Shown here one piece after another: positions 6,701 through 59,700 of a stretch of 64,000 nucleotides of DNA. Numbering within the stretch: position 1 is the stretch's first letter; each line of letters starts with the position of its first letter. The translations under genes were made by a program, and so were the position numbers. This DNA comes from Rhizaria sp. SCN 62-66 (Eukaryota), in NCBI GenBank assembly GCA_001724265.1, contig MEDY01000042.1, positions 124,001 through 188,000 on the forward strand. The letters are read 5' to 3'. The notes under the pieces were generated by a model. It worked only from the letters and a program-made list of their open reading frames with translations. It did not search any database and was not told where the DNA came from.

Positions 6701-9700
6701 TCTGCACTATGCGATCGCTGACCTCGCAGTCCGCTCTTGCGCACGCCTTGCCCCGACCGCGGCCGCCGCAGCCGCCGCGCCCGCCGGCGACGCCGATGGC
6801 AGCGACGACCAGGGCGGCCTCACTGACGTCATCGCCGCTGTCACTGCGCCCGACACTGTGCTGATGTACAGCACGGTCGACGGCGCGCTCACCACAGCGG
6901 CTGCGGCTGCTGTTAGCGGCGGCATGACTGCTGCGCCCTCGGCTGCGGCTGCAGCGGCGCTGGCAGGGCCGCGAGGCGTGACCTTCGCGACTGTGAGCGC
7001 AAATGAGCCCCGGAACGCGTTGGCGGCGTCGTTGCTCGCGGCCGCTGCTATGGTGCAGACTGCGCTTGCGTTTGCCGACGTATCGGCCGCGCTGGTGCCC
7101 AGTGCTCTTGAGCTCTCTTCTGACTCGAGCAGAGTTGACGTGCAGAGTTCAGAGCGTGGGCAAACGCAGAAGCAGAAGCAGCACCCGCTTGCGCCTGCTG
7201 CAGCGATGCTCGTTGACACTCCGTTCGAGCCGTCGCAGCGCCGTCGCAGTCTGCTGCGGTTGCCGGCGCCGCTGCGTCCGCGTGCTCTGTCACTGATTAT
7301 GACAATTTGCTCGCGCTCTGCAGTCTTTGCTGCGCAACAACAGCAGCAGCAAGAGCAACAGCAACAGTCACACGCGACCGCGGCTGAGGCTAACTCTGCT
7401 GCAAGCTATGCCGCGCCGTCTGTGGTGTATCCCATTGCGCACTGGCCCTGGGACGCTGTATCCGCGCTGTCACATTCCATTCCCGCTCTTTTGGCCCCCT
7501 CGCGGCGCTACGAGACGCTCTCTACCGCACTGGAGAGCTTCCGTGCCCTGTACGCCTCCGTCGTCGGCGTTGAGTGGCTGCCCCGCGCTTCCTCCGCCGC
7601 GCTTGCGCTGGCAGTTCTGAACCCGCCCGCCGCCGCAGCCGCCGCAGCCGCGTCCGCCGCGGACGACGACGCCGCCGCAGCAGGCCTGCCGCTGCCTTCG
7701 ACACTCACTGCAGCTGCCGCCGGCAGCGGCGGCGACGCACACGGCAGCGGCGCATCGCACCACCACGGCGCAAGCGTGCGCCACGGCCGCCCTCGCACCC
7801 ACGCCGCGTACACCGCCGCCGCCGCCGCCGCCGCGCCTGGCCGTCGCAGCCGGCGGCCTAGCGCCACGGGCTCCGGCCACGGCACGCCGCAGCACGGCCC
7901 GCGCGCGTCCCCCGCGGACCCGCCGGGCACGGACGGCAACAGTGCGGCGGCCCGCCGCGGCCGGCGCCGGCACTGGCGACGAAGAAAGCGACCGCGCGCA
8001 CTCGCGTAGCCGGTCCGTGTCGCTCGTACGGCCGGAGTCGCGTGGCGCCAGGCTCGTGCGCGGCACGTCAGCGACGCGCGCCGGCGTGCGCCGCCACGGC
8101 CTCAGCGCGGCGACGGGGCCCCGCGGCGCCGCTGCGGCCGCGGCTGCGGGCGCGGTGGCTGCCGGCGGCAACGGCGCTCACCCCGTTCGTCCCCTGCTGA
8201 CGTCACCGCTGCCTGACACGCTGTCTTGGCCTGCGGATTCGCTGACGGCGTGGCCGCTGGTGACACCGCTGCACGCGCCGGCGCCGTTCGCGCTCTCCAA
8301 GCCCACGTCTGCGGCTGCTGCGGCCGTAGCGGCGGCAGCGGCGGCCTAGGTCGCTGCGGCGCCCGCGCGGTCCGCTGTGACTGCGGCGCGCGCGCTGCTG
8401 ACGATCGCGACTGTGCTGGCTGAAGTGTCGCCGGATGTGCAGGCTCTGTTTACGTTCGAGGCTGAGCTCGAGAGCACTCGCATCGCGCCTGCTTCTGCGG
8501 ACGGTAACCTGAACACGACGACGAGTGGTGTTGGTGCCGACTCGGCTGACGGTGAAGACGGCGCGCTTGTGATGCCGACTCTCGAGCACACGTCGTCGTA
8601 CAACAACAACAACACTTACGTCAGTTCTAACAGTCGTGAGTTCCGTCGTGCTGCTTCAGGCCCCGGCGTCAGCGCAACTGCCTCGTCCTCCGCCGCTGCA
8701 GCGAACGCTGCGTCGGCTGCCAAGGGGACTCTGTGGGGTGCCGTCATGCGCGCACAGACCGCTGCGCTCACTACTGCAGATACTTCACTGTTCACACTGC
8801 TGTCTGCGCCGCTAGTCGCTCCTGTCACCGCGCTTGTGGCTGCGGCCTTGGCGACGTCGGCTGCGGTCACCGCTGCCACCAGCGCCGCCGCCGCTGCCGC
8901 TGCGGTTTCCGCGGCAAGTGCGAGCGTGAGTGCGAGTGCGAGCGCCGCTAGCGCGCACAACACGAGCGTGGGTGGCGCTACTGGTGGCAGCGAGCACCGC
9001 AGCGCGAGCCGTGGCCGGCGCCGCAGCAGCCGTCTCGGCGACGGCGCTGACGACGAGACAGCTGTGGCCGCCGCAGCTGCTGCAGCAGCTGACGAGGCGC
9101 TCGCCGTCGCTGTCGCGGCGGCTGAGGCTGAGGTCCCCAACAGTGCAGCGTTCGCTGGGCTTGACGGCGTTGAAGCCGAGGCAGTTACTGACTCGCTACT
9201 GGCGTCGTTCGAGAACAGTGAGTTTGACATCGCTGTCCCGCTCCCGCTCCCTGCCCTGCCGCTCCGCCCTCGCGTCATCATTGCGTCTACTGCTGTCTCT
9301 GAGAATTTGACTGTGAGTGCGCAGTGCCCTCACATGTGTGGTATCTCCTGGGGACCGAACGGCCAACTCGTCTTCTTCTCTGCCCAAGTCCCCGGCAGCA
9401 ATGCTCGCCCACTCAATACCGCTAGCCCCAGCGCAGTTTGTGCGCCGCCGCGGTCGATGCTTGACTACTGGCGCGTGCGCAATGCGGCCCCTGCTCCCCC
9501 GACGCGGCTTAATTTATCCCACTTCTTCTACAACACGACGCTGTTCCTGCCCCACGCTCCCGGGGCGCGTGCTGCCGCCTTGGCTCCCGCTGTTGCCGCC
9601 GCAGCCGCCGCAGCCGCCGCAGCCGCCGCAGCCGCCGCTGCGACGCAGCTCCCCGCACCTACGAGCACTGCCGTCACGAATATCAGCCCGAACAACGCGA

Positions 9701-12700
9701 CTGGCGGTATCGCCGGCGTCGCTGTTGCCGTTGCTGGCGCCGATGACGCCGATTTCCTCATCGCGAACTCTCCGCAGGATCCGTCGTCTCCGCATGCGCC
9801 CGCCGCCGCGGCCGCACTTTCGTACGGCGGCAGCGATGGCCCCGGCGGCGTCGGCAGCGAGATGACTGCGCTCGCGCTCTCGGCGCAGAGCAGCGGCGTC
9901 GCAGATGGTGCGATGCTCGGCGACACGCGCGCCCCGCAGCCGCGACTGCGCGAGCGTCCTGTGTGCCTCAACCCGGCGCTGGCGCGCTTTGTGCGCGGTG
10001 GCGGCGCGTCTGACTCTGAGTCTGATTCGATGACCGATCCCCGGTCAGACGAGGGCGATTCTGACCGGAGTTACGACTCGCGGCGCCGCCACAGTGACGA
10101 CGACGCAGAGAGCGCGCTCGGTGGCATTGCGCCCCCGAGTGAGACTACCGAGGCTGACGCCGATGCGGCGCTGCTGGGGCTCTCGTTACCGGCACTGGAA
10201 ACGCTCGGGATCCGGCTTGGCACAACGCCCACAGCGAAGACCTCGGGCAGCAAGTCAGGCCGACGCCGCGGCCACCACAAGCAACAGTCCGATAACCGCG
10301 AGTCCGAGTCCGAGCGCGGCGACGGCAGTGACGGCGACGACAGCGACCGGTCGCGTCTCAGCCACCGCGGCTCGAGCAGTGGCGCAGCGTTCGGCGCCGC
10401 TGCTGCGCGGATGGGCAACAACACGGCGAACAACAGCGCGCGTCAGTCACGCCGCGGTAGCTATGCGAGCAGCGCTGGTGCCAGTCCCCGCGTCGTCAGC
10501 AGCGCCAGCGGCAGCGGTCCGCTGTCGCTGCTGACGCTCACTGCGCCTTCGTCCCAGCGGCGTCAGCGTCCGCTGCGGTCTCCGGCGGCTTCTTCTAGCG
10601 CGGCCACTGCTGCTGCTGGATCTACCGGCGACGATGACGATGCAGTCAACCGCTTTGGTCTTCGTCGCAGGCACATTGAAGTGCTCGAAGGCGCTGATCA
10701 GAGCGTTGGCAGTAGCGACGTTGACGACAGTGGCACTGATGATGTCAGCCACGACGACGCCGACTCGGACGTCGAGGGCGACGCCACCGACGAGGGCGAT
10801 GACGCACATGACGAGATTGAAGGTGACGGCCTTGACGGCTTAACTTTAGTCTCTGCGGGTGCTGACGGTGAAGGTGACCACCACCATCATGACGGCGAAG
10901 GCGATGATCTCAACGACCGTGGACTGGGAGTCGAGAGCGACGAGGACGAAGAGGAAGGCAGTATCGCGAGTATGTCTGACTCGAACAACATCAACAACAC
11001 GAACAGCAACAGCGAACTGCCTCGCATCAGCCCGACCTCGAGCACAGGCCTCACGTCTCTCTCGCGCCGCCACAGCAGCTACCACAGTTACCACAGCCGC
11101 GGCAGCAGCAAGGGCGGCAATACCCCAACCAACGCCAACCCTAAGCGCGATGAGCAGGTCAACGGGACATACGCCAGCAGTACCTCTTCCTCCAGTGGCG
11201 GCAGTGAGATTGAGGCGAGCAGCGAAGACGACATGATCCAGTGGGTCACACCAGACGCCGCGGTCGTCGCGACTAGACCCCGCACGCGCAGCCGCCACAA
11301 GCTCCGCCGTCAGCGCTCGAACCCCGGCGCTTCTGAGTCTACTTCAGCCGGAGCTGCGGAGAGCAGTAACGAGAGCGGAGTCTTAGTGCTCGGCCCTGGT
11401 GCCAGTACGGTCGCGTCGGAGCTTGAAGCCACTGCGCAACACCTCGCGCTTGAGAAGCAGCGCCAGGTGCGCCGCGCGGCTGCTGCGGCTGCTGCGGCCG
11501 CCAACGCCGCCACTGCTGCTGCGGCCGCCGCGGCCGCTGCCGAGGCCGCCGCCGCTGAGGCCGCTGCCTTGGTCCCCGCTGTCCCTCGCCCGATCACTGC
11601 GATTGCTATCGCTCCCTGCGCCGACGCGCTGACTTTCCACTCACTGTCACCGTTCTTCTTGGCGCTGGCATCAACGCGGTCCGCCCTGTCCCCAGCGCCG
11701 CCGTCGCCGCACGCCATCGCGTTGCTGGCCCTGCGGCTGAGCGTCGCCACGCGGGACCCCGCGATGTCGAAGATGGCTGAGACCGCCGCGCTACTCACTG
11801 AGCCCACGGCGTCCGCAGCAGCGGCTGCAGCTGCCGCGGCTGCCGCGCCGGTGGCCGTCTCCGCAAGCGCCGGTAGTGGCTTGTTTGCCTCGACCGGCCG
11901 CGCTCCCGTGATCTCGCACTCTGTCTTTACTTCGGGCAACGCGAGCAGCCACGGCAATAGCTCGAGCAACGCGACGGCCCTCGTCGCCGCTGCGCCCGCG
12001 CGCCCGCGCCCGTACCCGCTGCAGCAGTTCGGCATGTCTCTTGCGCGCTCTCTGCTGCGCGATCAAGTCGCCGGCGGCCACACCACCATGGCGGCGTTCA
12101 TCGCGATGCTGTTCTCCCGCTTCCTCTTCGACCCGCGCCCCGCCAACGCCGCGGCTGCAGCGACTGCAGCGGCCGCGCTCAGCGCCGTGCACCGCCGCCG
12201 TGGCCGCCGCGCTGGCCGCCGCGCCGCGAACCCTCGCCTCGGCACCGCCGCTGCGGCCGCGCGTGCCGCCGCCACGGCCGGCATGGGTGCGCCGCTGTCG
12301 TCGCTGCTGCGCGTGTTCCCGCGCTCGTTCCCGTTGCCGCGCGAAGTCGTGTCCGTGCGCGCCAGTGACGGCACGCCTTGCTCCACCGCAGTGCTTCCCT
12401 CGTCCGCTGGCGTCGCTCTCGGCTCCTCCGCCGCAGCCTCTGCCGCGACGGCGAGTACGCGTGCGCTGAGCGCTGGCGGCGCTGCTGGCCAGGCCGTCGT
12501 GGCTGTGCCGTGCCCAGCGCTGGCGTTCCTGCCCACGGTCACCTCGCAGAGCATTGTGCAGATCGTCTCGGTGCCGATGATCGCGGTTGCCTCAGAAGCT
12601 GCCGATGTGCCTCTCAGCACTGCAAGCCCCAACATGATCATTACATCTGCTCCACTCAGTGCAAGTTACAACAGTGCGGCAATCTCGAACTCCGCAAAGT

Positions 12701-15700
12701 CAATGTTTTCCGCTCCGGCCCCTGCAGCTTCGCCGTCTCCCGTTGCCCCTGGTCATGTCTCGCCCGCAGTCGCGCCTGTGGTGACCTCAGCAATCTCGCC
12801 GCCTCGCGTTGCCGGAGCTGCGAACCAGGGCGCCGGTGCGGTGTCGCTCCTGCAGCGCTCTCCTGCCCATATGCAACAGCAACAGCAGCAGCTGCAGGGT
12901 GTCTCGTCCGCGCAGCGCGCTCTGTTCCCCGCTGCACCGGCCACAGCGAGCGCGACTGGTTCTGTAGTCACGATTGCGGCGCCGCTGCCCCTGGCTGGCC
13001 CCGCTGCGGCTGCGGCTGCCGGAGCGGTCGGCGGCTCCCCGCCGCTTGTGCCATCGGGCTCGTTCATCGCGATGCGCCAGTCGCCCGCTGTTGCTGCTGC
13101 GGCGGCGCCGAACTCGTTGCAGGTGCCCGGCGTACTGCAGCAGCAGCAGCTACAACAATCGCTGGTTTCTGCGTCGTCGTTCGTCAGCGTGTCTCCCAAC
13201 AACAACGCCGCGGTGAGCAACACTGGTGCTGTTCTGCCGCCGTCCCCGCTCCCGCTGCAGCCGACCAACAACCACAGCAACATGAACTCTGGCGGTGACA
13301 CCAACGCTCCCGCAGTGTTCGGCACGAGTGCCGGCTCCGGCGCTGGCTCCGGCGCTGTAGGCTCGCTTCCACACAACGGCTCCTCAGCGGCGTACACGCT
13401 TTACATGCGCTCGCCGCGTCTCTCCGCTCTCGGCGCTGGTACTGGGATCGTCTCAGTGTCCGGCGCAGCTGCTAGTGAGCCGTTCGTGCTCTCTGGCGGC
13501 GGCTCACTGATGCCGCCGCTGGGCAACGGTCCCGGAATGCCGTCTCTGTCTCCCCTCATCACGGCCACTAGTGCGCTCCCAGCGTTGCCGACGATCACGC
13601 TCAGCGCGACCGGCGCGCTGCCGGGCGCTGTGGCGACCGCAACTGCGGGCGCAGGCGCGAGTGCCGGCGCGATTCAGACTGCTGGCGCGCCGCAGGCGCA
13701 GACGCGTGCGAATGGTCGCAGTATTCTGCAGTCTGCTGGTCCACTAACGACATCTGCGCCTCCGGCTGCGACAATTGCGAATAATAACAACAGCAATGCG
13801 GGTGCAAGCGCAGCTATCCCGATAGCGCGCGCTTCTGTGTTTGGCGGATTCGCACCACAACAGCAACAACAGCAGCAACAGCAGCAACAGCAACAACTAC
13901 AGCAACAGAATCAACACATTGTGGGCACTCCCGGCCAAATTGTTAACTCAAGCCCCGCGCTGACGGCCGCGGGCGGCGTCCCGCCCCGCAGCTACGGCAG
14001 CGCCAGCCACGCGTTCTCGCACACGCAGGGCCAGAGCCAGGGCCACGGCGCCGGCGGCGTCCCGCTGCTGGCGCTGGGCGCTGCGCCCACGGCGCCCGGA
14101 GCCCCCGCGCACAGCCACAGCCACGGCGCGGGCGCTGGCGTTGGGCCCGGCGGCCACAGCGGCGGCCCCAGCGGCGGCGTGATCGGCCTTCCGCTCCCGC
14201 GCGCAGCTTCGAGCTCGCGGCTGGCAAATCAGTACGCCGCTGCTTACTACGCGGCGGCCACGCGCACCGTCTCTGGCGCGGACGCCGTTGCTGCCGCTTC
14301 CGCTGCACTTGCTTCGGTCCAGGCGACGTCATCGTCGACTATGTCTGCCTCTACTGTGCCCGCCCCTGCGGCCGTTGCAGCTGCCGCTGCAGCCGCAGCC
14401 GCTGCAGCGTCCGCCGGCGCTGTGGGCGGACAAGGTGCCGCTGGTGCTGCTGCTGTTGGGCAGGGTCATATCGCATCTGCCCCGAGCGTCGCGTTGTCTG
14501 CATCTGCTTCGAACCAGGCGCGGCCGCGTCACGCCTCGTGCACCGGCACTCCCGGCACGCCCCTGCTTGGCTCCGCGCTGATTCCGACCTCCGCCGCCGC
14601 CGCCGCCGCTGCCGCAACGGCGGCGTCGTCGCCGTTCCTGACGCCTGCCATCGCCCCCGCAGCCGCGCCGCCCGCGCTGGCGATGCTCGGCGCCGCGGCT
14701 GGCGGCATGTATGCGACACTGTCGAACGCGGACGCGGTCAACGCTGCCCGCGCGCTGCGCCGGATCAAGGGCTCAGCGTCGCACACAAATCTCGCTGCTT
14801 TCGCGTCCGCCGCGGGCGCGATTGCGGGCGCGGCCGGCGGCAGACGTGGCGGCGCCGGTGGCGCTGGCGCGGGCAGGCCTCAGCTCAACGGCACGCGTGG
14901 AAACCGCGTGAGCTCATTCGGTGAGGACGATGACTCTACGCCGCCTACGTCAAACGGCATGGCGGCGCAGCAGCTGCGCGGCGCTCTTGGTGGTAGCGTC
15001 AACAGTAACGGCCTTGCGCCCAGTGGGACCCGCAACGCGCGCACTGTCTCTGCGACGAGCGCGACCGGCGTTGAGTCCGCGATGCCTGCGAGCAGCGACA
15101 CTCCCGGCCTCCGTTCACTCGCGACGATTGCGGCGACTGCGGCTGAACGCAGCAGCTCGAGCCATAGTAGCGCGAGTCTGCCGCAAAACGCGTCGCCCGC
15201 GATTCCGCTCTCGCTGCCGACGCTCATGGCGGCGCCGAGCGAGACTGACTCCACTGCCGGCGCTGCGCAGACTCGTGGCAGCCACACCGGGTCTGGTATG
15301 CCCGCGACTACCTCGGTTGGATTCGGAGCTACCACCACTATGCCGCTGTTCAGCCAGGCCAGTGCTATGCAGATGCAGGGTGACAGCGCCTCTGTGCTGT
15401 CATTGTCAGGGGATGCGTTGTTCGCCGGTGATGATGGCAACACCATGCAACATTTCAGTGCTGTTAACGACGGCAACACGGCGCCGATGCTCACTGTCCG
15501 CGATTTTCCCCTGATCACTCTGGGCGCGGGTTCTCTCTTTGCGCCCGGCTGCCCGCCGCTCTCGGCCCCTGTCGATATCGCGTACGCACTCACAAGTCTA
15601 GCGACGCGCCGTGTGCTCACACACTCGCTCACAGGCTCCCGCCGCTCCGCGCGTCGCAGCCGCCGTCGCGCCCGCGCTCAGCAGCAGCGCTCTCTGGACG

Positions 15701-18700
15701 CACACGGCGCCTATTCGGCGCAGGGCGAGGACGACACTGCTGCTGACGCGGTGGCCCCTGTCTTCGGTCTGCGCGAGTGGGGCTCCGCGCTCTCCACGCT
15801 GCCGTCCCTGACGTCATTCCCCGCGCTGTTCGCCGCGCTGGCGCGCTCTATGGAGGAGAGCTCGCTTGCAGCAGGGCCTGGGCTCAGTCTCGCTGCTGCG
15901 TCCGCCGCAACTGCCTCGACAAGCGCCACTGCTAACGCCGCCCCAAGCTTCTTAGACGCGGGGTACTTAGACAGCGGCTACCTGGACGACACTGCTGGCG
16001 CGGGAAGCAGTCGCGCGCACAGCGTGTCCGTGCCGCAGCTGCTCGCGTCGCTCTACGGCACGCTGCCGACTGCGGCGGGCGAGGCTGGCGCTCCGGTGAC
16101 TGTGCCTGTTGCGACCGCGAGCACGCTGCCGCCTGTGGGCGCGCTCTGCAGTGGCCTCGCGCGCCGTCGTCGTAACAAGAACCGGGCTCGACTGCATCCT
16201 TTATCTCCTGTGATCAATACTCCCAACGGAGACGGGAGCAACACTGGCGCGGTCGATGACGAAGGACAAGTGACTGTGATGCATTACCGCCTCACACTCC
16301 CAGTGCCTGCGACGTTTGTCCCCGCTTACACCCAGTCTCAGCAGCAGCAGCCGTATTACCAACAGCAACAACAGCAGCAGCAGCAGAGTGACTCAACTGC
16401 GACCTCAGCGTACGCATCGCGACCCTACTACCCGCGCACTCGTTCCGATGTCAGTCTTGTGATCTCACCCAGCAGCAACAACATTGCTGCCGTTGACATC
16501 ACGACTGCCGACCACGACGTCGACAACGAGGTGCCCATCGGCAGCAGTGATACGCAGTCAACGGTGAGTCTTAGCGGCTTTGCCGAACACCCGCGGACGC
16601 CCGGTGCTGCCGGCCTGTCGCCGTCGTCGCTCAGTGCCGCTGGCAGTGGCTCCGGCTCTGCCTCGAGCAGCAGCAACGCTAGGCAGCAACAGCAGCAACA
16701 GCAACAGCTGCCTACTTCCCCGGTTCGTCAGTCGAGCGTCACCGGCATTGTTCCCGCTCTCAACACCGCCGCTGCGGACGCAAACGCCGGTGTGAGTGAT
16801 GGCGTCACTGACGTGCGTGCCCGCGCAGTCTCTCTCAGCAACAGCTCGCCGCCGCCCACGCAGCTCATCGTCGGTAGCGCGACTGGAAGCTCCGCCGTTC
16901 ACAGTCATGCGTACGCCCTCGCGCCGAGCCCGAGAAACTCTGCAGCCACTGCCTCGAGTGCAGCTGGGGCGCCGACTGGGACCGCGGCTTTCCCGCCCAC
17001 AGCGTTCCCGCCGACAACGACTCTCGCAGGGCCGGGGCCGGGGCCGCACAACACGTCGCTCGCGTCGTCCCACCAGCTGCCGCCGCGCCGCACGACCAGC
17101 ACCGGCAACTCGGCCCCGGTCCCGACCGTGGTCGCAGGCTCCGGTGCGGTGAGCCTCGCGTCCGGCACGATGCCTATGGTGCCTGGCGCCTACTACAGCT
17201 CGCTGCCGCCGGCGATGCCGCAGACGGCGGAGCTGCGCAGTGCGCTGCGGCTCGCTAAGCGCATGGCAGCGGCGCAGCAGGCTGCGACCAACGCGAGCAA
17301 CGCAGGCGTCGTCGCTGCAGCTGTTGTTGCCGCCGGCGCAGGGGGCTCGAACACGATCACTGTCAGCAACTTCGGCGGCGCTAGTGGCACCAAGACCGGA
17401 AGCACGCTGCTGTCTCCCGCAGCGCCGACGGGCCCTGAGCAGCCGCACCTGCTGTCTCTGTTCCGCCCGCCCGGCAGCACCGGCACCGAGTCCCCAGTCC
17501 CCGGCAACGCCGCGCCCGCTGCCTTGGCCGCGGACGCTTCGGTCGTCCGCGCCGACCCGCTGCCGCCGCTGCCGCACCCGCATAGCCAGCAGGCGCCGCC
17601 GCTGTACTCCCAGCAGCCGCCGCAGCAGCAGCTGCAGCAGCGGTCGCGCGCAGTCGCCATGGCCCGCGGCGCCGGTGCCGGCGGCGGCGCTGCGGCCGCA
17701 CTGCTGGGCCGCGGCGGGATGCAGCACGCGCGCTCGGTCGGCACCGGGCTCAACACGCTGCACACCACAACGAGCAACAGCAACGCGAGCAACGTTGAGA
17801 GCGCGAACATAGCTACTGTGACCTCTTTCGGTGCGCTGGGCCGCGGCCCGTCCCCTGTGTTGCCCGTGCCGCTGCCAGCGTTCACGGCTCTGCCCCTCGG
17901 CGGGCCCTCGCTTTCGCTCCGCACGGTGCCGTCTCTGTCGGTCATAGCGGTCTCGCCCGCGCCCTCGGCCCGCTCCACGATGTCGGCGGCGGCGACCGTG
18001 GTGCCGCAAGGCAGCGCTATCGGCCATCATCACTACCAGCATCAGCAGCAGAGGCCGCTGACGACGACCGCGACCTCCGCCGCTGCTGTTGCGCTCGCGG
18101 GCGGCAGTGCGGCCGCGGCTGCGTCATCGGCGCTTGCTGCTGCCGCTGCGGCGGCGGGCGCGCGCTTCACTCACGCCGCGTACACTGGTGCGTACAGCCA
18201 AGCCGACAGTCAGGCGTACAGCCACGAACATGCGTCGCAATACAGCAACGGTGACGCCCCCACGCTCGAGGCTGTTGCCGGCGCCGCGTACGACGGCAAC
18301 GGCTCGCCCACCGCCTCAGTCGCCGCCACGGCCACTGTTGACGCTATCACCGGTATCGCAACTGTCGTCGACGCGAGTGCGGCCTCTCTAGCGGGCCCCG
18401 CTGCTGGCGCTGCGCTAACAGTCATCTCCCAGCCGTATCTGTCGCTGATGCCGGCGCTGCTGGAGTTCACAGTCACGCGTCCCGCGCCGCCCGCGCGCGT
18501 GTTCTTTGAAGACGCACTCATCGCGCACTTGGGCGAGTTCCTGATGCGCAACGGACACACTGTGCTGCGCGCGTATGTCCTCAAGTTCCTGTCGCTGCGC
18601 GCTTTACTGGCGGCCTCCGAGAGGGACAGCAAAGTCGACTTTGCCACGATCCGTGCTGGTGCCAAGCAAGTTGTCGCTATGCTCATCGGTGCCGATGTCG

Positions 18701-21588: not shown

Positions 21589-22631
21589 ACGCAGTGTCGC
21601 AATGTTGACGATGTAACCACAGCTTGTTATGAGTAACGGCTGGGGATTTAAATGACGTCTCAGTGCGTATAATGTAAAATTCAAGCGTTAAATTAGTATA
21701 ATACATATGACTCTATTTCTTACTCTATTGTTATTTCACGTCGTATGGCTTCCTCAACATTAGTGTTGACAAAGAGTAGATTGTGATATTTTCCCTTGAG
21801 AACTCGCCAATACAGGGAGGCAACATGTGCGACTAAGCAGACATCCTTCAGATATAACATATAGCACTTCCTTATACAAACCATATCATCGGACTGACTC
21901 GGCTATCGTGCATTGGGATTGTCATCATGCGACACATGTTGCTTGACGTATGCTTTCACCGGACGGCCCACTACCAGATTTGGGAGTTTCAAAGGGCAAT
22001 ACAGACATTTGTCAAACCTACGCCGTTACGCCCATACACAATAGCACATATTGCACATCATATTTCGCCATATTCTGTTGGAACCTGGGCTAGTCGGATA
22101 TCTAGACGTGTTTCGCGACTCCATATTTGAATCTTCGAGCACAGAAAACGAACATGACACAAATAGGTCCCAGGACACCTTTCCGGAAAGCGTTAGTAAT
22201 ATAATTAAAGTGGCAAATATTACAGAGCTTTGTGTATCATCTAAGCAACACCTAATTGTATAATGACGAATAGAGGTGGCGCATATGCAGCGTAAAGTTG
22301 GGTTCGCGATTGGTTCCCGTGCTCACAGTCACCCCTTAGACGACTGGGTTTTGACCGAGCCAACTGCTCAAGCCCACGAGAGTGTAACGGCTCAGCCGAC
22401 TTCTGATATACCTCTCTTGTGCCTCACACGTCCAATGGTTTAAACTGTAGTTGATTTGCGTTATTAATTACGCATTGCTTGCTTCTGATCATTTTTTCGT
22501 TTTCCTTGAGGCTGCCATTTGCGCTTCTTATTTTCAAACTCGACGAGCGTCCGAGTCGTTCCTTTCCTCTGCTCTCGCCTCACCTTAAATCCTTTGCCTT
22601 GCCTTCCAACCCCACCCAGAAACCACTCAAC

Positions 22632-45883: not shown

Positions 45884-48800
45884 ATGTCGTTCGACCTCCT
45901 GACGCTTCAGAACCGCATGAAGCGCGACCCTGACGGGTACCGCGAAGGTACGTTCCTCTATTTAATACTAAACAAAGTTGTTTTGTCTCCCTACAAGTTT
46001 CTTCAGTGCTTCTCTAACCTCCGTAAGCCTCCCCTCTCTTACATCCCTCGTCATTCTCACCCACCCTCGCTCTTCGTTTCTCTGTGTCGCCAATGTGCGT
46101 TCTCTGCGCTCCCACCACAGAGTTCCTTCAGCAGACGCGCCACTTCATGTCCAATCTGCAGATCTACAAGCTGCAGCCGCTGACCAAGGCCGGCAAGAGC
46201 CAGGCGCAGGCCTCGATCTTCGACCTCGCGAGCAATAACAAGGCCAACGCGACCCCGGCGTCGCGCCGCGCTGCCGCCGCGGCCACGGCCGAGGTGGCGG
46301 ACCCGACGGCGGCGATCCAGACGCGCCGCATCCAGGAGTTTTGTTCGCTCATCTCGTTCCTGTCGCACGCGGCGCCGCTTTACAAGGCCGAGGTGACTGC
46401 GCTCAACATCCCTGGCGAGCTCTACACGCTGTTGTTTGACCACTGCGAGACTCTGGACCCCGTGCTCCGCAAGACGCTGACGCAGGCGCTGATCCTGCTG
46501 CAGAACCGCGGCATGATCCCGCGCACCGAGCTCATGCCGGCGCTGTTCCGCTGCTACCGGTGCGCCGACAAGGACCTGCGCCGCGACGTCTTCCAACACA
46601 TGATCGCCGACATCCAGAAGCTCACCAAGTCGTCCCCGTCGCAGTCAGTCGTGGGTGCGCTGCAGAAGATCGTTTTCACGATGATGAAGGACGACCACCC
46701 CGGTGTGGCGCTCAAGGCGATGCAGATTCTGGTCGAGCTGTGGCGCCGCAACACGTGGGTCTGCGAGGCCGTCGCCAACGCCATGGCAAACATGTGCTTC
46801 GGCACCAGCGATAAGCTCATCTCGGCCGCGCTGTACTACTTCCTGGGCAACTACGATATGGATGATGACGAAGAGAGCGACACGCGCAACAAGATCAAGG
46901 ACCGCAAGCAGGAGCTCGCCATCGTGGCCAGCTCACTCAAGCACTCGCGCTCCAAGATGAAGAAGGAACGCATGCTCAAGCGTGAGAGCAAGAAGCTCAA
47001 GAAGCAGGAGAAGGACCTCGAGAGCGACGACGAAGAGGACGACGAGGACGCCGTCGGCAACGCTGTCGCCAACATGAACCCTATCTCGATGGTGTACGAC
47101 CCGCAGCACTTTGTCGAGCGGCTCTTCCACAAGCTCAAGTCGTCGCGTGAGAGCTTCGCCACCCGCATGCTTATTATGGAGGTCATCTCCAAGCTCATCG
47201 GCTACCACAAGCTGCTGCTGTTTAACTTCTACCCGTTCATCCAGCGGTACCTGCAGCCGCACCAGCGCCACGTCAACGACCTGCTGGCGTTCGCAACTCG
47301 CGGCACGCACTCTCTGGTGCCGCCCGAGGTGCTGCAGCCGATGGTCAAGACGATCGCGACCAACTTCATCACGGACCGGTCGCAGCCCGAGGTGATGGCG
47401 GTGGGCATCAACGCCATTCGCGAGATCTCGGCCCGTCAGCCGCTCGTCATGTCCGAGGCGCTGCTGCACGATCTCAGTGAGTACGCGCGCCACAAGAACA
47501 AGGGCATCGTGACGGCGACGCGGTCGCTCATCTCCGTGTTCCGCCAGCTCAACCCCGAGCTGCTGCGGCGCAAGGACCGCGGTCGTGACGGCCAGCTCGC
47601 CGTTATCATCCAGCGCGGCGACGACGACATCGCCAAGCAGGCGCGCGAGGAGGCTGCCGCCAAGCTCCACTTCGGCGCCTCGACCGCGCACCGCGACATC
47701 GACGGCGCGGACCTGCTGGCGCGTGCAGGCATGCTGCGCGAGGGCCAGACGGGCGACGACAGTGACGAGTGGGAAGGAAACCACGAGTTCGAGGACGACT
47801 TCATCGCCGATAACGCCGCGCTTGAGGACGACGACGACACGCCCGATAAGCTGCCCAAGTACATGAAGAAGAAGCTCTATCACCTCAAGGGTGAGGCACG
47901 CCGCAAGTACCTTGCGCGGTTGGTCAACTCCGGCTACGCGCTGCCCGGCGGCAACACGTGGGAGAGCGCCCGCGAGCGCGGTGTCGGCGACGAGGATGAC
48001 GAGGACGAAGACGAGGTACGCTTTCATTTCAGTTATATCTCCGCAATACGGACTTCCTGAAATGTATTGTCTTTATTTTATATGTATAATTTATTATTGG
48101 TGGTTTGTTTGTAAGTTTTATTCTCACTATGTTTTATCTTTGGTGTTTCTTTTTTTTTTTTGTAGGATGGCGAGATGGACATGGACGAGATCAACCGCAT
48201 GATCGAGAGCGGTGAGCTCGAGGCCATGGAGGGCGACGACGAAGGCGATGACGACGACGACGACGATGATGACGAGGTACGTGACTCTTTATATCGACAA
48301 CAAAACTCAATATCCCTTGCTTTATTTCTCTCGGTTGACCTTGATGAGACCATGTACACTCAGCTCTGTGTGTCGCAAGATGCGTATAAACGAGAAATAA
48401 GAGTCACTATCGTATCATCGCATTATATTAGCAATCACTCACTATATTTTATAATTCTTTCCTTGTTTGCGTCGTATATCTACAATTTAGGACGGCGAGA
48501 TGGACGAGCTCGAGATCGACCCCGACCAGTTCGACCGTCTCTTCGACGGCGAGGGTGACATCCCCCTCGAGGGCGACGACATTGAGGGCGTCTTCTCTGC
48601 CGTCAGCCTCGCGGCCGAAGGCGACGAGTTCGACATGGACGGGCTCGAGGGAGACGACGACGGCGAGGGGGACGAGATCGACCTCGAGGGCGACGATATG
48701 ATGGACATGCTTGAGGGCGACGAGGACGACGGCGAGCTCGATTCCGACGCCGATGACGAGGAAGAAGAAGAGGAGGAGGTCAAGGAGGTCAAGCCCGTCA

Positions 48801-49411
48801 ACAAGCGCTCCCGCAAGACGGTCGCTTTCTCCACGGGCGACGCCAAGACCGACGCCATCGCCGCAGCCGCGACTGCCGCCGCCATCAAGGCCGAGGAAGC
48901 GAAGCAGCTGCTGCCGCCGCGCGCCGCGCTGCGCATCCTCACCCCGGCCGACTTCGCGCGCATCGAGGAGCTGAAGAAGCAGCGTCTGCTCGACGGGCTC
49001 AAGGGCCAGCGCAAGCGCCAGCGTGAAGTGCTGATCGAGGACATGGTCGAGGAGGGCCGCCGTGTCAGCGCCATTGCGGCGGGCACGTACACCGACATTC
49101 AGGCCGACGACTTTGCGAGTGTGACACGGAAGAAGAAGTTAAGCCGCGAGGAGCGCGTGGCCAAGGCGGAGGAGTCTCGCGCGGCACTCAAGCTCAACAC
49201 GCGTGGTCACAAGTTCAAGGATGCCGGACTGGGTCTGTCGAACGAGGAGAAGAGCAAGACCAAGAACTTCAAGATGATCCAGCACTCGTACCGCGTCAAG
49301 AGCAAGGCCGTGCGTGGCCGTGCCGACGCGCAGAGGACGAAGCAGAAGCACAACCAGAACATGTCCAAGATGGGCAAGAATATCAAGAAGAAGATGAGTC
49401 GCCGTGTCTGA
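45884..49411 (+). CDS. SDA1: SDA1/SDAD1 60S ribosome biogenesis factor, ~996 aa; exons 45884-45947, 46121-48015, 48166-48276, 48491-49411
   Basis: Motifs LLTLQNRMKRDPDGYREEFLQQ, VELWRRNTW, LLLFNFYPFIQRYLQPHQR, HSLVPPEVLQP, NPELLRRKDRG, RILTPADFARI and GLSNEEKSKTKNFKM. Three GTACGY...AG introns; ends TGA. Confidence 0.96.
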
Positions 49412-49744: not shown

Positions 49745-52700
49745 TTAGTTGAGCTGCAACTGCGACGTCAGCCGTGCAATCTCTTGATCCTGCTCAGTCG
49801 CCAGTGCCGCGTTCACTGCAGCCACGTTGGGCATCGTCTCCACAGTCGCGGCCAGCGCACCAGCGTCATCGGCAGTCGCGGCACCCGCGGCACCCGCGGC
49901 GGCGGCTGCTTCGGCCTCGGCGTCATCCCGAGCCGCCGCCTCCGCCTCAGCCTCGGCCTCAGCGACGGCAGCCTGGTCGAAGCTCGCGATCTTAGCCTTC
50001 AACACACCGCGCTCGCGCTCGAGCTGCCGCACGCGCGCCAGCAACGCGTCGTTGCCCTTGCCGGCCGCCGCCGCAGCCGCCGCCTGTTGCTCCGCCGCAG
50101 TCTTCGCAGCGGTGAGCTGTGACTGCAGAGTGACAAGCTCGCTGCGGACCTTCGCCCGCAGCCCCTGCTTGGCGGCCGCGGCGTCGCGCCGCTGCTGCTG
50201 CTGCTGCCGCGCGTAGCTCACGGCGCGCTTGACGATGTTGTTGGTCACGGCGCTCTCGGCAGCCATCGTGCGGCGCGTGCTGAAGCTCCAGTCGACCTCT
50301 TGCTCACGGTCGCTCGCCGTCGCCGTGCGCGAGGCCAGCACGGCCTCCCAGCGGCGACGCTTCCACGCGAGCAGCGCGGCCTCGCGCTCGGCAACAAGCA
50401 CGGCCCGGTTGACCACGAACGGCACCGAGTCGCGGTCGCCATCGGCCGCATCCAGGTTGCTGTAGGCGTCGACGCGCACGCGGACGACGCCGGTGCGGTC
50501 ACCGCGGCGCGTGTGGGGCGCCGGCGCGGTCGGGTGCATCGACCTCGCCGCGAGCAAGGCGGCGGAGCGCGCGGCGGCGGCGAGGTGGTACTGTGCACAG
50601 CCGCGGGAGCAAGAGCAATAGCACTCCGCTGTCGTCGGGACGCAGGGGGCGGAGCCCACAGCGGCCGCTGCGGGGGTCGCGGAGGCCGCGGCGGTCGGGT
50701 AGCGGCAGACTTGGCCCGGGCGCGCGGCGGAATGGCCGGCGCCGCCGCAGATGCAGGTACAGGGCTCGCCGTGGGCGTAGCAGCCGTCGCTCGGGTCGGG
50801 GGCGCTGTTGTGGAGGACGTTCGCGATGCCACTTGTGTTGTACAGACTCGAGCTCGAACTGGAAGGACGAGTTGTGGCAACTGCACTTGTGACAGTGTTC
50901 GGAATAGCGCCGGAGTTGTTGTTGTAGATGCTGGACGGGAGAGGGACGCTGCTGCCGGTAACCGCGGCGGCAGGGCACTGCTGTGCAGATTTCGAGTAGT
51001 CGGCCGCCGTCTTGCGCGGGAAGCCAGGCGCGGGCGGGAAAGTGGCGAGATCAGCCGGGGTGACTGCGAGCGCGTCGCTCGCGAGAGCGCTGTACCGGCC
51101 GGAACTCATGAAACTCGTGAAAGGGGGGTTACTATAGTGATAGTTATAGATAGAGTTAGAGTTATAGCCTGGAGTAGAGTTAGCGGGAGCAGCGTTGGCG
51201 GCGGCACTGTTGTCGGCGGCGGTGGCAGAGGCAGTGCGCGCAGTTGCGGCGAGCAGCGAGGGAACGCGGTCGGGGTGGCCGTGGGCCGCGATGGCGGGGG
51301 GGTGCATCGATGACAGCGCAGCAGAAGCAGCAGAGTGACTGGGAGCAGATGGGTGACTGTGAGCCGCGTAGCCGCCTGGCGACGAGTGACCGTGAGACGA
51401 GAGGTGACCGTGGGCAGCATGGTGACCGTGAGCTGCGGGACTGTGACTATGATTGTGAGCCAGGTGACCGTGAGCAGTGATGTCAGGGTGACTGTGAGCA
51501 GCAATAGGTGACGAATAGCTATAAGAAACACCAGTCGTTAGACTACGAGCGGCAACAGTTGGAGTGTTCGGTGACACGGGGCTTAAGCGAGAGTCAGAAC
51601 TGGTAGTTAAGCTTGAAATTGAGCTATATCTAGCACTATCACTAGCAGGCGAGTTACTCTCGCTATGCTTAGCTTCCATCTCAGCCTCCACAGTTGCAGT
51701 CGCGTTCGTGGTCGCAGTCGAGGTGGCAAGCGGAGTGATCGCATCACCGCCGCCGCCGTAAGCGCCGTTACTAGCGGCAGTGTAGCGAGGAACACTCGCG
51801 TCCGTACTCGTGTCGCTTGCGGCAGCGCCTGCTGAGCTGCTAGTCGTATATGGGATGACGATTGGAGAGCCAGCGAGGGGAGCGTGCGTGTTGTCATAGT
51901 AGCTGTGGCCACTCTGCTTCGTGAAGCCGTTGCTGCTCGCCACTGAGCCAACGCCAAACCCGACGCCGACACCGCCAGAACTGGCAGCAGCAGCGGCAGC
52001 GGCGGCGGCGGCGACCGAGGGCGACAGCAGCGGCGGCGACGGCAGAGCAGCGGAGTAGACTGAGTGCACAGTACCGACGGGCGCAGCGTTAGAGCCGGCG
52101 ACGGAAGTTAGGCCGCCTGTGCCAATATAGGCCGCGCCGCTGCTGCTCGAAGTCAAGCCGCCGTGCCCGGCCATCACCGCCATCGCAGCAGCACGCGAGT
52201 TAGGTGTGCTCCCATTGCCACCAATAGCGGCCGCCTCACCCACGGTCGCCCCGCTCAGCCCGCCGTAACTGCTGCTGTTGTTGCTGTTGCTGTTGTTGTG
52301 ACGAGCTGCGCTGTTGGAGCGTTGCGAGCTATTGGTGTTATCGTAAGGTGAGAGCGTGACAAACGCGGTCTGATCCGACGGCAACGACGGGAAAACAAGC
52401 GGTCCGCCCAGAGCTCGGCACGTATAGGGCACTGACGCGTCGACGAGAGTCTGGTATTCCGGCTTATGCTCGCAGCCGCAGGCGCAGTCGTCGCAGCGGC
52501 TGCACGCGCAGTGCACGTCGCAGTTGCAGTCGCACACGGGCCGACCCGCGCGCTGCCGGCCCCGCGCCTCGGGCATCTGTGCGACTGTGCGTGCAACGTG
52601 CTTATTCTGACCGACGAAGTCCTTGGTGTAGACGTCCCGGGCCGCGGCGGCGGCGTCGGCGGTTTGCACGCGACGCACGTAGCGCGCGGCCTTAGGCGAC

Positions 52701-53651: not shown

Positions 53652-55963
53652 ATGTTTTCCTCCGTTGCGCGAATTAAGTCATGCTCGCGTGCGGTATCGC
53701 GTCTTTCTGGTGCGGTCAAGTCGCCTTTCGCGACAGGTCTGTCGTTGCGCCACGCCGCCGCCGCCGCGCGCGCTGCGCCCGTGCCCCGCACTGCCCCTGT
53801 CCCTGATGGCCCCACTGCGCTCCTTGCATGGGGCTCGGATAGCGCCTCCGCGCTTGGCAACGGCAGCTACGACCTCTTCCGCAGCGCAATCCGCCCTATC
53901 ATCCTGCCCCCCAACGCTTACGCCCCCGCCGCCGCCGCGTCCGTCGACTCCGCCTCTGCTGCGGACGCTCCCGGCGCTGCTGCGAGTGCAAACGCAGTGC
54001 CCACGTTTGCCGAACCCGAATCTGTGGTGGATGTTGCGACCGGCTGGTCCTCGTCGCTCGCCGTGACGTCCTCGGGCGCAGTGTACCAGTGGGGCTCGAT
54101 GGCCACTCTGCGCGACACCATCTCGGCTGCGATGTTCCGCGGACGCACGCCCAAGGTCTTCCGCGCGTTCCAGAATTTGACGTTCATGGGGCGCATGGCA
54201 AACCGGAGCAGGGCGCCGCGACCCGTGCAGATGCCGCTGTTTGGCGCCAAAACACTCGAAGACCTCGCCAAAAAGGTTGGAGACAAGCAGGTACGCAAAC
54301 CTACTATTGTACTTTATTATTTGCTGAATATACTTTATTTTTGTGTTGTATCTCTGTATTTGGCATCTAAACATATTATATTATCCTGTAAATATTATAT
54401 CTTCGTGCTATATCTTCTCAATTGCAGATGGTGCTGACTGAGAACTCGGAGTTCGACCCCGAGTCCCTGCACGTGACCCAGGTCGCCGTGAGCGCCGAGA
54501 CCTCCGCCGCGGTCACCAAGGGCGGATTTCTCTTCACCTGGTCGACCTCCGGCGACACCGTCGGCACTCTGGGCCGCGCTATCGCCGCGCCCAAGGCGCC
54601 GGCGGCGGACGACATCTCACTGGCCGAAGTCTTCGCGCGCGCGACCAACATCATCACTCTGTCCGCGTCCGCGCTGTCAGCCCCGCAGGTTGTGCCGGCG
54701 CTCATCGGCAAGCACATTACCGCCGTCGCCACGGGCTTCCACCACCTGCTCGCGCTGTCAGACGAGGGTGAGGTTTTCGCGTGCGGCAAGGTCGAGACCG
54801 GTGCTCTGGGCCTGCCGTTTGAGTTCCTGGACCGGGGCCAGGGCCGCTTCGTCGACACACCGCGCAGCGTCACGGGCGCCGTTGCCGGGTTTATGGCCGA
54901 GATCCGCGACGCCGCGCAACTGCAGCAGCTCCGCGTTGAGCAGGCCAAGGCGCGGTCCAAGGCCGACGCAGGCCGCGCGCAACATCACAACATCATCAAG
55001 AGCAAGAGCGGCGACACAGCCAATTCCGCTAATAACAATAGCGTCGCGACTGTGCAGGTGTCCGAGGCGTCTCCCTACGCGGCGGCCGACGCGGACGCCG
55101 CGGACCCGACCCAGCTACCGCGGGGCGTCATCGGCGACATCGGCAAGGTCACGGCTATCGCGGCGGGCTTCGCTCACTCTGCGTTCCTCGGCAGCGACGG
55201 CGCGGTGTGGACGTGCGGCAAGAACAGCCACGGCGAGCTCGGTTTGACCGTGGATCTGGGCGCAGACGTCGTCGATTCGGTCGATTTCAGGCTGCATTAC
55301 CTGCCGACGCGCGTCCGAGGCGCGCTAGAGGGCTACAAAGTGGTCCAGATTGCGTGCGGATATCACCACACCGCCGTGCTGACCGACAAGGGCACGGTGC
55401 TGACGTGGGGCTCGAACCGCCACGGCCAATGCGGCCGGCCGCACGAAGTCCCGACCCTCGCCACCGCGATGGGCAAGAAGGGCAAGCGAGCCGCGCACCA
55501 GGCGTTCGCGCTGCGCGTGGGCGTCGTGCGCATCCCGGGGCTCGGCCAGCCCGACCGCGAGACGGGCGTGCCCGTGACGGTCACCAGCGTCGCGTGCGGG
55601 CCGTACGACACCGCGCTCACGCTGTCTAACGGACGCGTGCTCTTCTGCGGGTCGTATCTTGATGAGAAGGGCCTGAAGCGGCCGCCGTTTGCGCTCGGGG
55701 AGTTCGACTCGCTCGCCACCACGCCGCCAGCCACCGCGGCGGAGAATATGAGCCAAGCAGTGCAGACGGCGATTGAGACAGGGGCACAGGCGGCGGCACA
55801 AGCGATTGCGACAATCTTCAGCAAGGATGCCGTGTCGCCGGCGGTGCGGGAGATGGACACGACTGCCAGTGCGGCGAGCGACGAGGGGAATAAGAGGTAT
55901 TTTGCGCAAAAGATTGTGATGGGGATTAATTATGCGTTTGCGCTTGGGAAGCCGCGCGGCTGA
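53652..55963 (+). CDS. RCC1-repeat protein with probable mitochondrial presequence (RCC1L/Fmp25-like), ~724 aa; exons 53652-54290, 54428-55963
   Basis: RCC1 repeats ITAVATGFHHLLALSDEGEVFACG, IAAGFAHSAFLGSDGAVWTCGKNSHGELG and IACGYHHTAVLTDKGTVLTWGSNRHGQCG. Arg/Ser/Ala-rich N-terminus MFSSVARIKSCSRAVSRL. Intron GTACGC...CAG; ends TGA. Confidence 0.9.
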
Positions 55964-56759: not shown

Positions 56760-59700
56760 TTAGCGTCTTCTTGCAGCAGCAGCGGCCACCGCAGGCGCGT
56801 CTGCGTTTGCGATCGCGTGGCCGCGGTCGGCCTTGCCCGCCGCGCCCTCGCGCCGGCGCCAGAGCAGCGCGACGGTGGCCGCGGCGACCGCGAGTACTGT
56901 CACGAGTACCGGGTTCGCCGAGAACTCGGGGCTCGCCGCCGACGTCGCGCTGCTGCGCGGGTAGCGGCAATACCCGCTCTCGCAGGATGTGGACAGGCAG
57001 TCGCGGTGCGCGAGACACGGCACGGCGTCTTCGCAGCTCTGGCAGGACGCGCCGCCGCAGTCGATGTACGTCTCGGTGTCGTCGAGCTCGACGTTATAAC
57101 ACGTGGTGGGCAACGCAACCTGCACGGCCTCGGAGATAGTCGTTGTGCCGGTGCCAAAGCGGACGTTTGCGGCGCTGCGCATGGTGGGAATGATTGCACT
57201 AAGAGCGGTGAGCAGCGGTGTGATTGAGCCTGCGATCATCGTCCCGCCGTACTTGGGGATGACAGTGAACTGCAACGAGACCGCGGTGGAGCCCGCCACG
57301 CGCCACTGCTTGTGCAGGCGGACCGAGTGGATGAGAGAACCCGTGAGGTACCCACGGGCTGCGGCGAGCAGCTCGCTGCGCTGGGTTGCTGTAAGCACGT
57401 CGGCGTTGCTGGCTGTGACTGTGATCGCGGCGACGAAGGAGTAGTCGGTCAACGGGCTGGTCGGCGCGGTAGCCTCTGGGATTTCGACAGCAAACGCCAT
57501 TAGCACAGGGCTGTACGATGGGGTATACGGCACCATCACGATCGGGGAGTAGCTCAATGTGACAGTCAAACTAACACTGGTGTACGCCGACGGTGTCATT
57601 ACTGACGGGCATGTGAGCAAAACACTGCCGGCAGTGATCTTGTCACCGAGAGTCATCACAAGTGTCGGCGCAACCCCTGGTGTCGATACCACTGTTGCGG
57701 CAGTTGTCGTGCCATTCGAGGTGACAACGCACGTGGTAACCGTCGACACGTCCCAGTCTGACGACGGGAACTCGAGCTTGATCTTACCCAGCTTCGGTAC
57801 ACTAAACGGCAACGACAATATCGCTACGGAGATCTCAACTTGCGTGCCCAGCGATAACGGGCTTAGCGTTACAGCAGACGTGACCGCCACAGTCGCAGGG
57901 TCCCAAGAGCCTGAGACAGAGACGCCTGGGGACGCGACTGCCTGCGGTGCGCCGAGCTCCTGGGTCTGCATGCGGCCGTCGACCTGCGCAATCGGCAGCG
58001 CTGCGGTGGTGTCAAAGTAGCCGCAGCGGAGGAAATGCACGCTGTTGGCATTAATGCCCACGGCGGGGTCAGGCGTGACTCGCAGCGCGCGCTCGCCGTT
58101 GAGCATAATGATGGACGCGAACGCCATAGTATCGGTGTCAAGATAGCACGTGAAACCGCCGGGCAGAATGGCCGGAAATGAAGGACCGACCGTGAGCTCG
58201 ATGACGGTGTCGGTGTCGGGCCGGTTTGCGAGCGAGAACTCGGCGTATACAATTGCTGCGTTGCTGCCAGAAATTGTGGGTTGGTACGGGAAGATAAGCG
58301 TGCCCGTGGGCGTAGTCAGCGGGGTAATTAGCACTGCCGGCGCAGTGGTAGCGCTGGGCGCATTTGCCATCACAGTGCGACCTAAGGAATCCTCGAGGCG
58401 CCAGAGGGCGTCTGCAGATGTTGTCGCAGCAGTGACCGCGGACGGTGCGCGCGCAGGCGAGCAGTACACGTTGAGGTCAATGCGCGGCAGTGAGGTTGTG
58501 CTATACGCAAACGTGGGAATGCCATTAGGTATCGTGATCGCAACGGAAGGGCCGCTGAACGTAAGCAGCGGTGACTGCAGCAGCGTTGTCGCAGTGCCGT
58601 TAACAATAACGCGCACGTTGCATTTGGCTGAAGGCAGGTTTAGCATCCACGGCGCGCCGCCGCCAAGCGGTGTCGGCGGTGTAAAATGCAGCACATCGCC
58701 CGCAATCGGCGGCAGCGGCAGCTTCGTCATGTCGATATTGAGACCCATCTGCTGGCTTGTGTAGACCGGAGTAACGGAACCCGACAGCGTGAGCACCGAT
58801 ATTGTGGTCATTTCAACCGGCACGGGCGCGGTGAGCACCGTAGCGCTGCTCGCGAGCGCGCGGGACACGAGCGTGTTGCTGACGTACGCGCCTGCGGCCT
58901 GCAATGTGGCATTGCTGCTGAACGGGTAGCGGCCCGCCTTGACGCGCATGATGTGCGTGCACGTGATCTTTGTGGAGACAAAGTCGCCTGGGAACCAATC
59001 GTCGTAGGCGTAGCCGTCTGTGGCCAGCGCGGGCGGCGGGACGGTAAGGGCGCCATTACTTCCCCACTGACTAGAGATGACCGGCGCGCCCAGGAAGAGC
59101 GAGACTGCAAGCGCGTCGAGAGTTAACCGCAGTGTAGTGCCCTGCACCTAAGTTGCAACTGCGTAGGTTGATGTGTCAAGGCCAGAGAGGGTGTTGTAGC
59201 TGTACGCGACTGAACATTGAGTGCTAGCGGCACCGGTAAAACCGTCGGGTAGCGCGAGCAAGAGATAGTCGCTTTGCTCGAGCGACGCGTTCACAGACTG
59301 CATTGAGATAACGAGATTTGCCGTGCCGTTAACAACGGTGCCGTCGTACTGATAGAGCAGCTCCTTGCCACCGAGCACCGCCATCGACGCCGCAGGGACA
59401 GATGACGCGGTGCCAGTCATGTCGTAACCAGCCAAATCATCACTGGACGAGAGGCGGAGCGGAACCAGCGTGATAATCTCCTTGTCAACTGTGCATGAAA
59501 ACGACATGACTTGGTTCGGTAAGTAAAGCAACCCATCAGTGAGAACAATGGCAAACATGCCTGCGTCTTCAGCGTCGCGGCGAGTCTCGACGATCATACC
59601 GTTGACCATGCACACAATGGACGAGTTGTACGCAAATCGCTGCTGACTTGCGCCATACACAGTGACAATGGTGCCCTCGGGGAATCCCATGTCGGAGTCA

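Follow-up and report, generated by a model that had tools for sequence, protein, structure and literature searches.

Very few eukaryote lineages are known to give UAG and UAA different meanings, and the first step by which a stop codon is captured for an amino acid is an open question. The rhizarian exLh (Sainouroidea) reads UAG as leucine; as reported, all 384 in-frame stops in 71 of its genes are UAG, and its gene ends comprise 56 UAA and 15 UGA (PMC5304391). The fornicate Iotanema spirale is described in the same account as reading UAG as glutamine and retaining UAA as a stop (PMC5304391). Phyllopharyngean ciliates, described from metagenome-derived genomes, have reassigned UAG alone, to leucine or glutamine, with UAA as the preferred stop (PMC11687900), and a ciliate has been described in which UAA and UAG code for different amino acids (PMC10553269). 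The subject of this study is a 64-kilobase (kb) stretch of DNA deposited as Rhizaria sp. SCN 62-66 (assembly GCA_001724265.1, contig MEDY01000042.1, positions 124,001 to 188,000 of the forward strand), referred to here as the window and numbered from its first letter. It is nuclear DNA of an intron-poor eukaryote, rich in guanine and cytosine (GC), from wastewater and bioreactor communities. Four of its genes each carry a single in-frame TAG codon, named TAG1 to TAG4 in order of position. The most likely reading is that the organism translates UAG, with a probability of roughly 60%.

The window resembles exLh in three respects: its in-frame stops are UAG only, its 11 gene ends are all UAA or UGA, and its organism is a non-ciliate protist. 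Its 11 genes contain just four UAGs, all outside conserved residues, whereas many of those reported in exLh stand at conserved leucines (PMC5304391). The exLh data are described as transcripts of an insect-associated organism, in contrast to the GC-rich genomic DNA from wastewater studied here (PMC5304391). Sense UAG next to stop UAA would be shared with Iotanema spirale, and glutamine is compatible with the alignment column at TAG4; unlike the window, Iotanema spirale is reported to use UAG far more often, with an assignment that draws on many conserved sites (PMC5304391). The phyllopharyngean ciliates are alike in that UAG alone would be reassigned, in their preference for UAA as the stop, and in that their genomes are metagenome-derived, but UAG is described as a widely used sense codon in them, and genes for suppressor tRNAs have been found (PMC11687900). 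The window, at 55-69% GC and part of a contig no shorter than 397 kb, shows no sign of ciliate origin. Programmed read-through, viral or cellular, usually lengthens a protein by a minor stretch at its C-terminus and requires a particular local context. The four TAGs are like read-through sites in that a stop stands inside a continuous frame, but differ in that the bulk of four unrelated proteins is encoded past the codon and no common context is seen. A search of the literature, which left supplements aside, turned up no description of sense UAG in a GC-rich eukaryote from wastewater.

The genes with an in-frame TAG are the four longest in the window. TAG1 (8347-8349, +) stands in a giant gene of ~7,020 codons at 525-21588 (+), TAG2 (27227-27229, +) in an XPG/Rad2-type nuclease gene at 26026-32371 (+), TAG3 (42026-42028, −) in G3, a gene of 1,580 codons and no known family at 40391-45133 (−), and TAG4 (59148-59150, −) in G4, a gene for a giant surface-type protein at 56760-63998 (−) whose 5′ part lies beyond the window. 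The frame is open for 242 codons before and 4412 after TAG1, for 303 and 1713 at TAG2, for 1035 and 544 at TAG3, and for 1616 and 795 at TAG4. Before and after TAG1, TAG2, and TAG4, one unchanged frame has a positive codon-usage score; at TAG3 the score is weakly positive. A first-pass annotation, made from the letters of the window, had reported four genes with one in-frame TAG each and long frames on both sides, and both the positions and the open frames are confirmed. Across the spliced gene models (18,308 codons, counted over the genes other than a putative dynein light chain gene), four TAG and no TAA or TGA occur in frame. UAG thus makes up ~0.02% of codons, as rare as the annotation had claimed, and all four occurrences lie at variable or low-complexity positions. 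The database gene calls P0001, P0002, P0003, and P0075 are pieces of these genes split at TAG.

A recount of the 11 gene ends is identical to that of the first-pass annotation, with six TAA, five TGA, and no TAG. The probability of finding no TAG among 11 ends is 0.012, 0.042, or 0.086 if TAG is expected to make up 1/3, 1/4, or 1/5 of stops, respectively; the earlier value of about 0.01 therefore holds at a share of 1/3 and weakens at the lower shares. One-step nonsense changes in these GC-rich codons yield TAG in 57-60% of cases (CAG, GAG, AAG, TCG, and TAC being common), and four random nonsense changes would all give TAG with a probability of 0.10-0.13. The statistics alone are modest and suggestive; the anatomy of the genes carries the argument.

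TAG4 is the site at which homologues can be compared. The product of G4 has ~3,512 amino acids (aa), with many similar Cys-marked modules and, at the C-terminus, a Cys-rich module and a membrane anchor that a short tail follows. A HMMER search with the 1,200 residues centred on TAG4 returned six proteins. The database calls of G4 itself are P0002 (2,716 aa), which stops at TAG4, and P0003 (795 aa), which begins past it. P0004 (4,192 aa, 39% identical) and P0005 (1,764 aa, 42% identical) align across TAG4 in a single stretch, and the more distant P0008 also spans it. TAG4 corresponds to exactly one residue, with no gap against P0004. Its column holds Q in P0004, M in P0005, and T in P0008, flanked by an invariant T and an invariant Q-G. 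Downstream of TAG4, ~40% identity to the homologues continues up to the membrane anchor. These alignments place TAG4 within one predicted gene, in a conserved block. The family of G4 was seen in metagenome proteins only (P0004, P0005, and P0008), and it has no Pfam match; a scan of metagenome contigs with its alignment gave 350 pattern matches, of which none was confirmed.

TAG2 interrupts a gene whose two halves belong to one enzyme. The XPG/Rad2-type nuclease gene consists of exon 1 (26026-26211) and exon 2 (26318-32368), followed by a TAA stop. Positions 1-65 of the XPG_N profile match in exon 1 (E 1.6e-12), exon 2 opens with positions 66-100, and XPG_I matches residues 1501-1582 (E 3.3e-25). 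TAG2 falls in the acidic spacer that separates the N domain from the I domain, so termination there would lose the catalytic I region, and TAG2 is within one gene. A homologue search with the full length of the nuclease recovered the window's own gene-call pieces only; low-complexity words crowded the candidates, and the result does not speak for an absence of relatives.

Assembled contigs of other sequencing runs provide an independent view of TAG2 and TAG3. The comparison used contigs of four runs over 26000-45200, the part of the window that holds these two sites. X1 is the likely source run, X2 a second sample of the same study, and X3 and X4 come from two other studies; X5 and X8 are RNA-type libraries, X8 being a polyA library. 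The segment 26000-35900 is nearly complete in X1, X2, X3, and X4 and partial in the RNA-type libraries. TAG2 is identical in an X3 contig covering 26000-28041, with no differences, and in an X4 contig covering 26418-27956. The X4 contig has a single difference, at 27311, which points to a strain that is slightly different. For TAG3, an X3 DNA contig covering 40937-42787 has the codon unaltered. No variant is recorded at either site. The agreement of contigs from other studies at both codons excludes base-call error at TAG2 and TAG3; the first-pass annotation had kept such errors as an alternative, which is contradicted at these two sites, the extent of the comparison. Over the 19.2 kb of 26000-45200, the X4 strain has nine differences, eight of them in coding sequence (four synonymous and four non-synonymous), and X3 has one further difference. 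Downstream of TAG2, strain differences number six, three synonymous and three not, which is too few to test selection.

TAG3 follows directly on a Gln run in G3, and the frame continues for 544 codons to a TAA stop (40391-40393, −) and AT-rich DNA. It is crossed by an X8 polyA contig (41891-42163, 273 nucleotides (nt)) with no differences and no joint, leaving 135 nt on either side, which argues against splicing or full editing at this site. Further contigs of the RNA libraries lie downstream of TAG3, at 40683-40855 in X8 and at 40844-41193 in X5. Among the contigs listed, none from X5 or X8 visibly covers TAG2, and gaps in RNA coverage carry no weight in the argument. A homologue search with G3 residues 560-1580 recovered the gene's own pieces only, again with low-complexity words crowding the candidates, so that relatives are not thereby absent. 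TAG3 is probably inside a gene.

TAG1 lies in an alanine run encoded by (GCN)n, and the 60 nt that follow it are 80% GC. The giant gene is assembled from a first frame, 525 to ~7934, and a second frame, ~7936 to 21585, which ends in TAA. The frame of TAG1 has a positive coding score from ~8077 on, on both sides of the codon, and no AT-rich island occurs anywhere in 583-21632. TAG1 is probably inside the gene. The first frame is closed by another TAG, at 8007-8009 (+), 60-70 nt past the end of the coding-like score. This codon is read as lying just past a one-base frame change rather than as a gene end because the score is negative from ~7900 and the DNA downstream is 77% GC. The frame change itself falls within 7897-8076, a very GC-rich stretch in which no frame scores as coding, and the run GGCCCGCC near 7935 could conceal a one-base insertion or deletion (indel). 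Its cause may be an indel of the assembly, a genuine mutation that shifts the frame, or recoding. At TAG 8007-8009 itself, the +1 frame is the frame that goes on. Euplotes-type frameshifting does not fit the four in-frame TAGs, past which the frame is unchanged, but it could apply at TAG 8007-8009, where the +1 frame continues. A single domain can be recognised in the giant protein, a RING/U-box-like zinc finger near its C-terminus (zf-RING_16, E 2.6e-8), at residues 2244-2276 of the piece translated from 14350-21585 (+); the rest of its ~7,000 aa is Ala/Ser/Gln/Asn-rich low complexity. Pfam found no family in the first frame or the junction region, so no domain logic joins the two frames.

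The four TAGs do not look like gene ends. TAA closes the giant gene (21586-21588, +), the putative dynein light chain gene (23163-23165, +), the XPG gene (32369-32371, +), G3, the gene 53290-49745 (49745-49747, −), and G4 (56760-56762, −), whose C-terminus matches those of P0004 and P0005. TGA closes Nuf2 (24064-24066, −), the three-exon gene 38453-33080 (33080-33082, −), the phosphopantetheinyl transferase gene (40200-40202, +), SDA1 (49409-49411, +), and the RCC1-repeat gene (55961-55963, +). The 60 nt past the stop have a GC content of 28-48% at the ten gene ends measured, as against 57-80% at the four TAGs, and it is this AT-richer context of the true ends that sets them apart. GT stands directly behind the stop at five of the 11 ends (32369, 24064, 33080, 40391, and 49409). 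At three of these five it extends to GTAA (TAAGTAAG, TGAGTAAG, and TGAGTAAC), which puts a second stop in another frame. The pattern may be a termination context or chance.

Nor do the TAGs look intronic. The six introns measured are uniform: they are 106-214 nt long, have a GC content of 0.27-0.36, and start with GTACG (GTACGT, and once GTACGC), and the exons around them are 55-70% GC. The contrast in composition is sharp enough for exons and introns to be called by composition alone in this organism. The XPG intron (26212-26317, +; 106 nt, 34% GC) starts with GTACGT and ends with TAG. The others lie in Nuf2 (24307-24441, −; 135 nt), in the three-exon gene 38453-33080 (35714-35852, −, and 37509-37718, −; the latter 210 nt, GC 0.33), and in SDA1 (48016-48165, +, 150 nt, and 48277-48490, +). 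The intron 37509-37718 is spliced out in an X5 contig, with a joint 37507>37718 at a depth of 8.26 and 79 letters on the shorter side. The exon structure of SDA1 agrees with tblastn matches of the relatives P0012 and P0018, which carry on into 48503-49408, and with the Pfam domain SDA1_dom on exon 3. With the introns removed, every multi-exon model is open in frame and a multiple of three in length. Around the four TAGs there is no AT-rich segment and no GTACG at a usable distance, and they are judged non-intronic because this signature is lacking.

The same introns account for most other apparent in-frame stops. TAA 24382-24384 lies in the Nuf2 intron, TAA 37620-37622 in the intron 37509-37718, and TGA 48058-48060 in the first SDA1 intron, and TAA 53387-53389 precedes the first ATG of its gene, in the 5′ leader. 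All four of these raw-frame stops are thus outside spliced coding sequence, and the earlier claim that no gene requires an internal TAA or TGA is borne out.

Leaky or programmed read-through of a UAG that is still a terminator, with a code that is context-dependent or ambiguous, is an unlikely explanation of the four sites but one that deserves weight. It would suit the very low usage, four in 18,308 codons, and the non-conserved position of every site; 11 ends are too few to exclude TAG ends elsewhere, and TAG 8007-8009 stands in the first frame of the giant gene. The codons behind the TAGs nevertheless share no 3′ motif (GTC GCT, GAC TTC, CCG TCG, and GTG CAG for TAG1 to TAG4), and four of the 11 genes would need read-through for their main product, including the catalytic half of the XPG nuclease and the membrane anchor of G4, in a window with no TAG end. 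A standard code in which the TAGs are fixed nonsense mutations or boundaries between separate pieces, with relics or second cistrons downstream, would break the same four of 11 genes, yet 544-4412 codons follow without a second stop or frameshift, ~40% identity persists downstream of TAG4 through the anchor, and the AT-rich spacer typical of the ten measured ends is lacking. TAG2 and TAG3, moreover, recur in runs of different studies and years. The probability of 0.10-0.13 that all four such mutations would be TAG is compatible with this explanation, as are the Q at the TAG4 site of one homologue, one transition away, and an ATG 22 codons past TAG3, but it appears quite improbable overall.

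Changes at the RNA level, whether small GC-rich introns or adenosine-to-inosine (A-to-I) editing to UGG, would be very unlikely to account for the TAGs. The organism does have introns, and the RNA data come from one site and one short contig, of a kind that drops rare variants. That contig nonetheless passes TAG3 unaltered, TAG4 aligns gap-free as one residue against P0004, and the uniform signature of the six measured introns is lacking at the TAGs. The first-pass annotation had listed editing and cryptic introns as alternatives; the X8 contig speaks against both at TAG3, and the missing intron signature argues against introns at the other three sites, where the DNA is GC-rich and coding-like. 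Errors of assembly or base calling are scarcely credible as the source of the four codons. The assembly may be imperfect, as an indel in it could underlie the apparent shift by one base near 7.9-8.0 kb, but separately assembled contigs agree with the window at TAG2 (X3 and X4) and TAG3 (X3), with no differences at the sites, and four substitution errors that all make TAG within 18,308 codons are unlikely.

Several observations weigh against translation of UAG. Its usage is ~250-fold below the ~5 in-frame UAGs per gene described for exLh (PMC5304391). The sample is one 64-kb window with 11 gene ends and four sites, and its P values are modest. No TAG stands at a conserved residue and the sole alignable site is variable (Q/M/T), as the first-pass annotation had anticipated in placing the TAGs outside recognisable conserved motifs and in holding that their contexts cannot decide the amino acid. 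The frame of TAG1 has no ATG from 7621 to ~8575 and is therefore joined to the 2,494-codon upstream frame by a +1 change near 7.9-8.0 kb, so the placement of TAG1 requires a frame change that is unexplained; if the upstream frame were a separate gene, TAG 8007-8009 would be a TAG terminator. G3 has no detected homologue and a weak coding score, and the RNA support at TAG3 is a single 273-nt contig with a depth of 3.7 from a library that may contain DNA. The check for a tRNA with a CUA anticodon, proposed earlier, was run on the 64-kb window with ARAGORN and Rfam and found no tRNA gene of any kind within it, and eRF1 is not within the window.

Translation of UAG is favoured over these objections because four of 11 genes would otherwise be broken yet are undamaged downstream, because the breaks are common to samples of different studies, and because at two sites domains (TAG2) or homologues (TAG4) require continuity. 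Of the first-pass claim that UAG is decoded as an amino acid, the continuity at TAG2 and TAG4 and the reality of TAG2 and TAG3 in DNA of independent runs stand; the decoding itself is a reading of the sequence and is put forward as probable. Under this reading, UAG would no longer be a working terminator, ribosomes would insert an amino acid there, and UAA and UGA would end every gene. Decoding would presumably be by a CUA-anticodon tRNA or a near-cognate tRNA, along with weakened recognition of UAG by eRF1. The very sparing use of UAG would then reflect an early or inefficient change from stop to sense; the earlier suggestion of a young or inefficient reassignment fits this low usage and may hold. 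The odds appear evenly balanced that this is a hitherto unsampled lineage at a very early stage of decoding UAG, with the codon confined to tolerant positions of long genes and with UAA and UGA still terminating. Glutamine is a weak first guess for the inserted amino acid because Q fills the TAG4 column in one homologue, a single base separates CAG from TAG, and a Gln run precedes TAG3. The M and T in other homologues at the TAG4 column mark a tolerant position.

The window as a whole holds the usual kinds of eukaryotic nuclear genes, which switch strand along its 64 kb and are separated by short AT-rich spacers. Its proteins include the XPG/Rad2-type nuclease (XPG_N and XPG_I), Nuf2, an RCC1-repeat protein, a phosphopantetheinyl transferase, and SDA1, and several very long low-complexity proteins match no known family. 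The gene at 22600-23165 (+), which we take from its sequence to encode a dynein light chain of the LC8 type, appears as three short exons in the otherwise AT-rich region 21.6-24.4 kb and seems to hold two introns beyond the six measured. Repeat searches of the window returned codon-repeat low complexity only.

SDA1 was used to look for relatives of the organism. The nearest SDA1 proteins are 50-55% identical, with one partial protein at ~70%, and the named matches are animals at ~35%. In a protein atlas comparison, SDA1 fell only in generic SDA1 clusters. A scan of genome contigs with an SDA1 alignment gave 128 pattern matches, of which none was confirmed, while a scan of metagenome contigs gave 64 loci. 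The best of these, L001 and L002, are only 50% identical, and none of the 64 has any other gene of the window. L002, a locus of 20,407 bases on a metagenome contig of 124,921 bases, is 52% GC, and its SDA1 frame runs for 1,049 codons free of introns. Three of its long frames end in TAG, which has no bearing on the TAG sites of the window's organism.

If UAG is indeed translated here, the organism would be an independent, non-ciliate addition to the small class of UAG-only reassignments, possibly at an early stage. Because gene callers split such genes at TAG, standard-code annotation would be wrong for about one third of the genes in the window. The organism turns up in datasets from several studies of reactors and wastewater that span ~10 years, and this recurrence in independent datasets would make it open to metatranscriptomics and metaproteomics. 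With no UAG ends, a few tolerated UAGs, and long variable proteins to hold them, it would offer a natural snapshot of an intermediate step in the capture of a stop codon.

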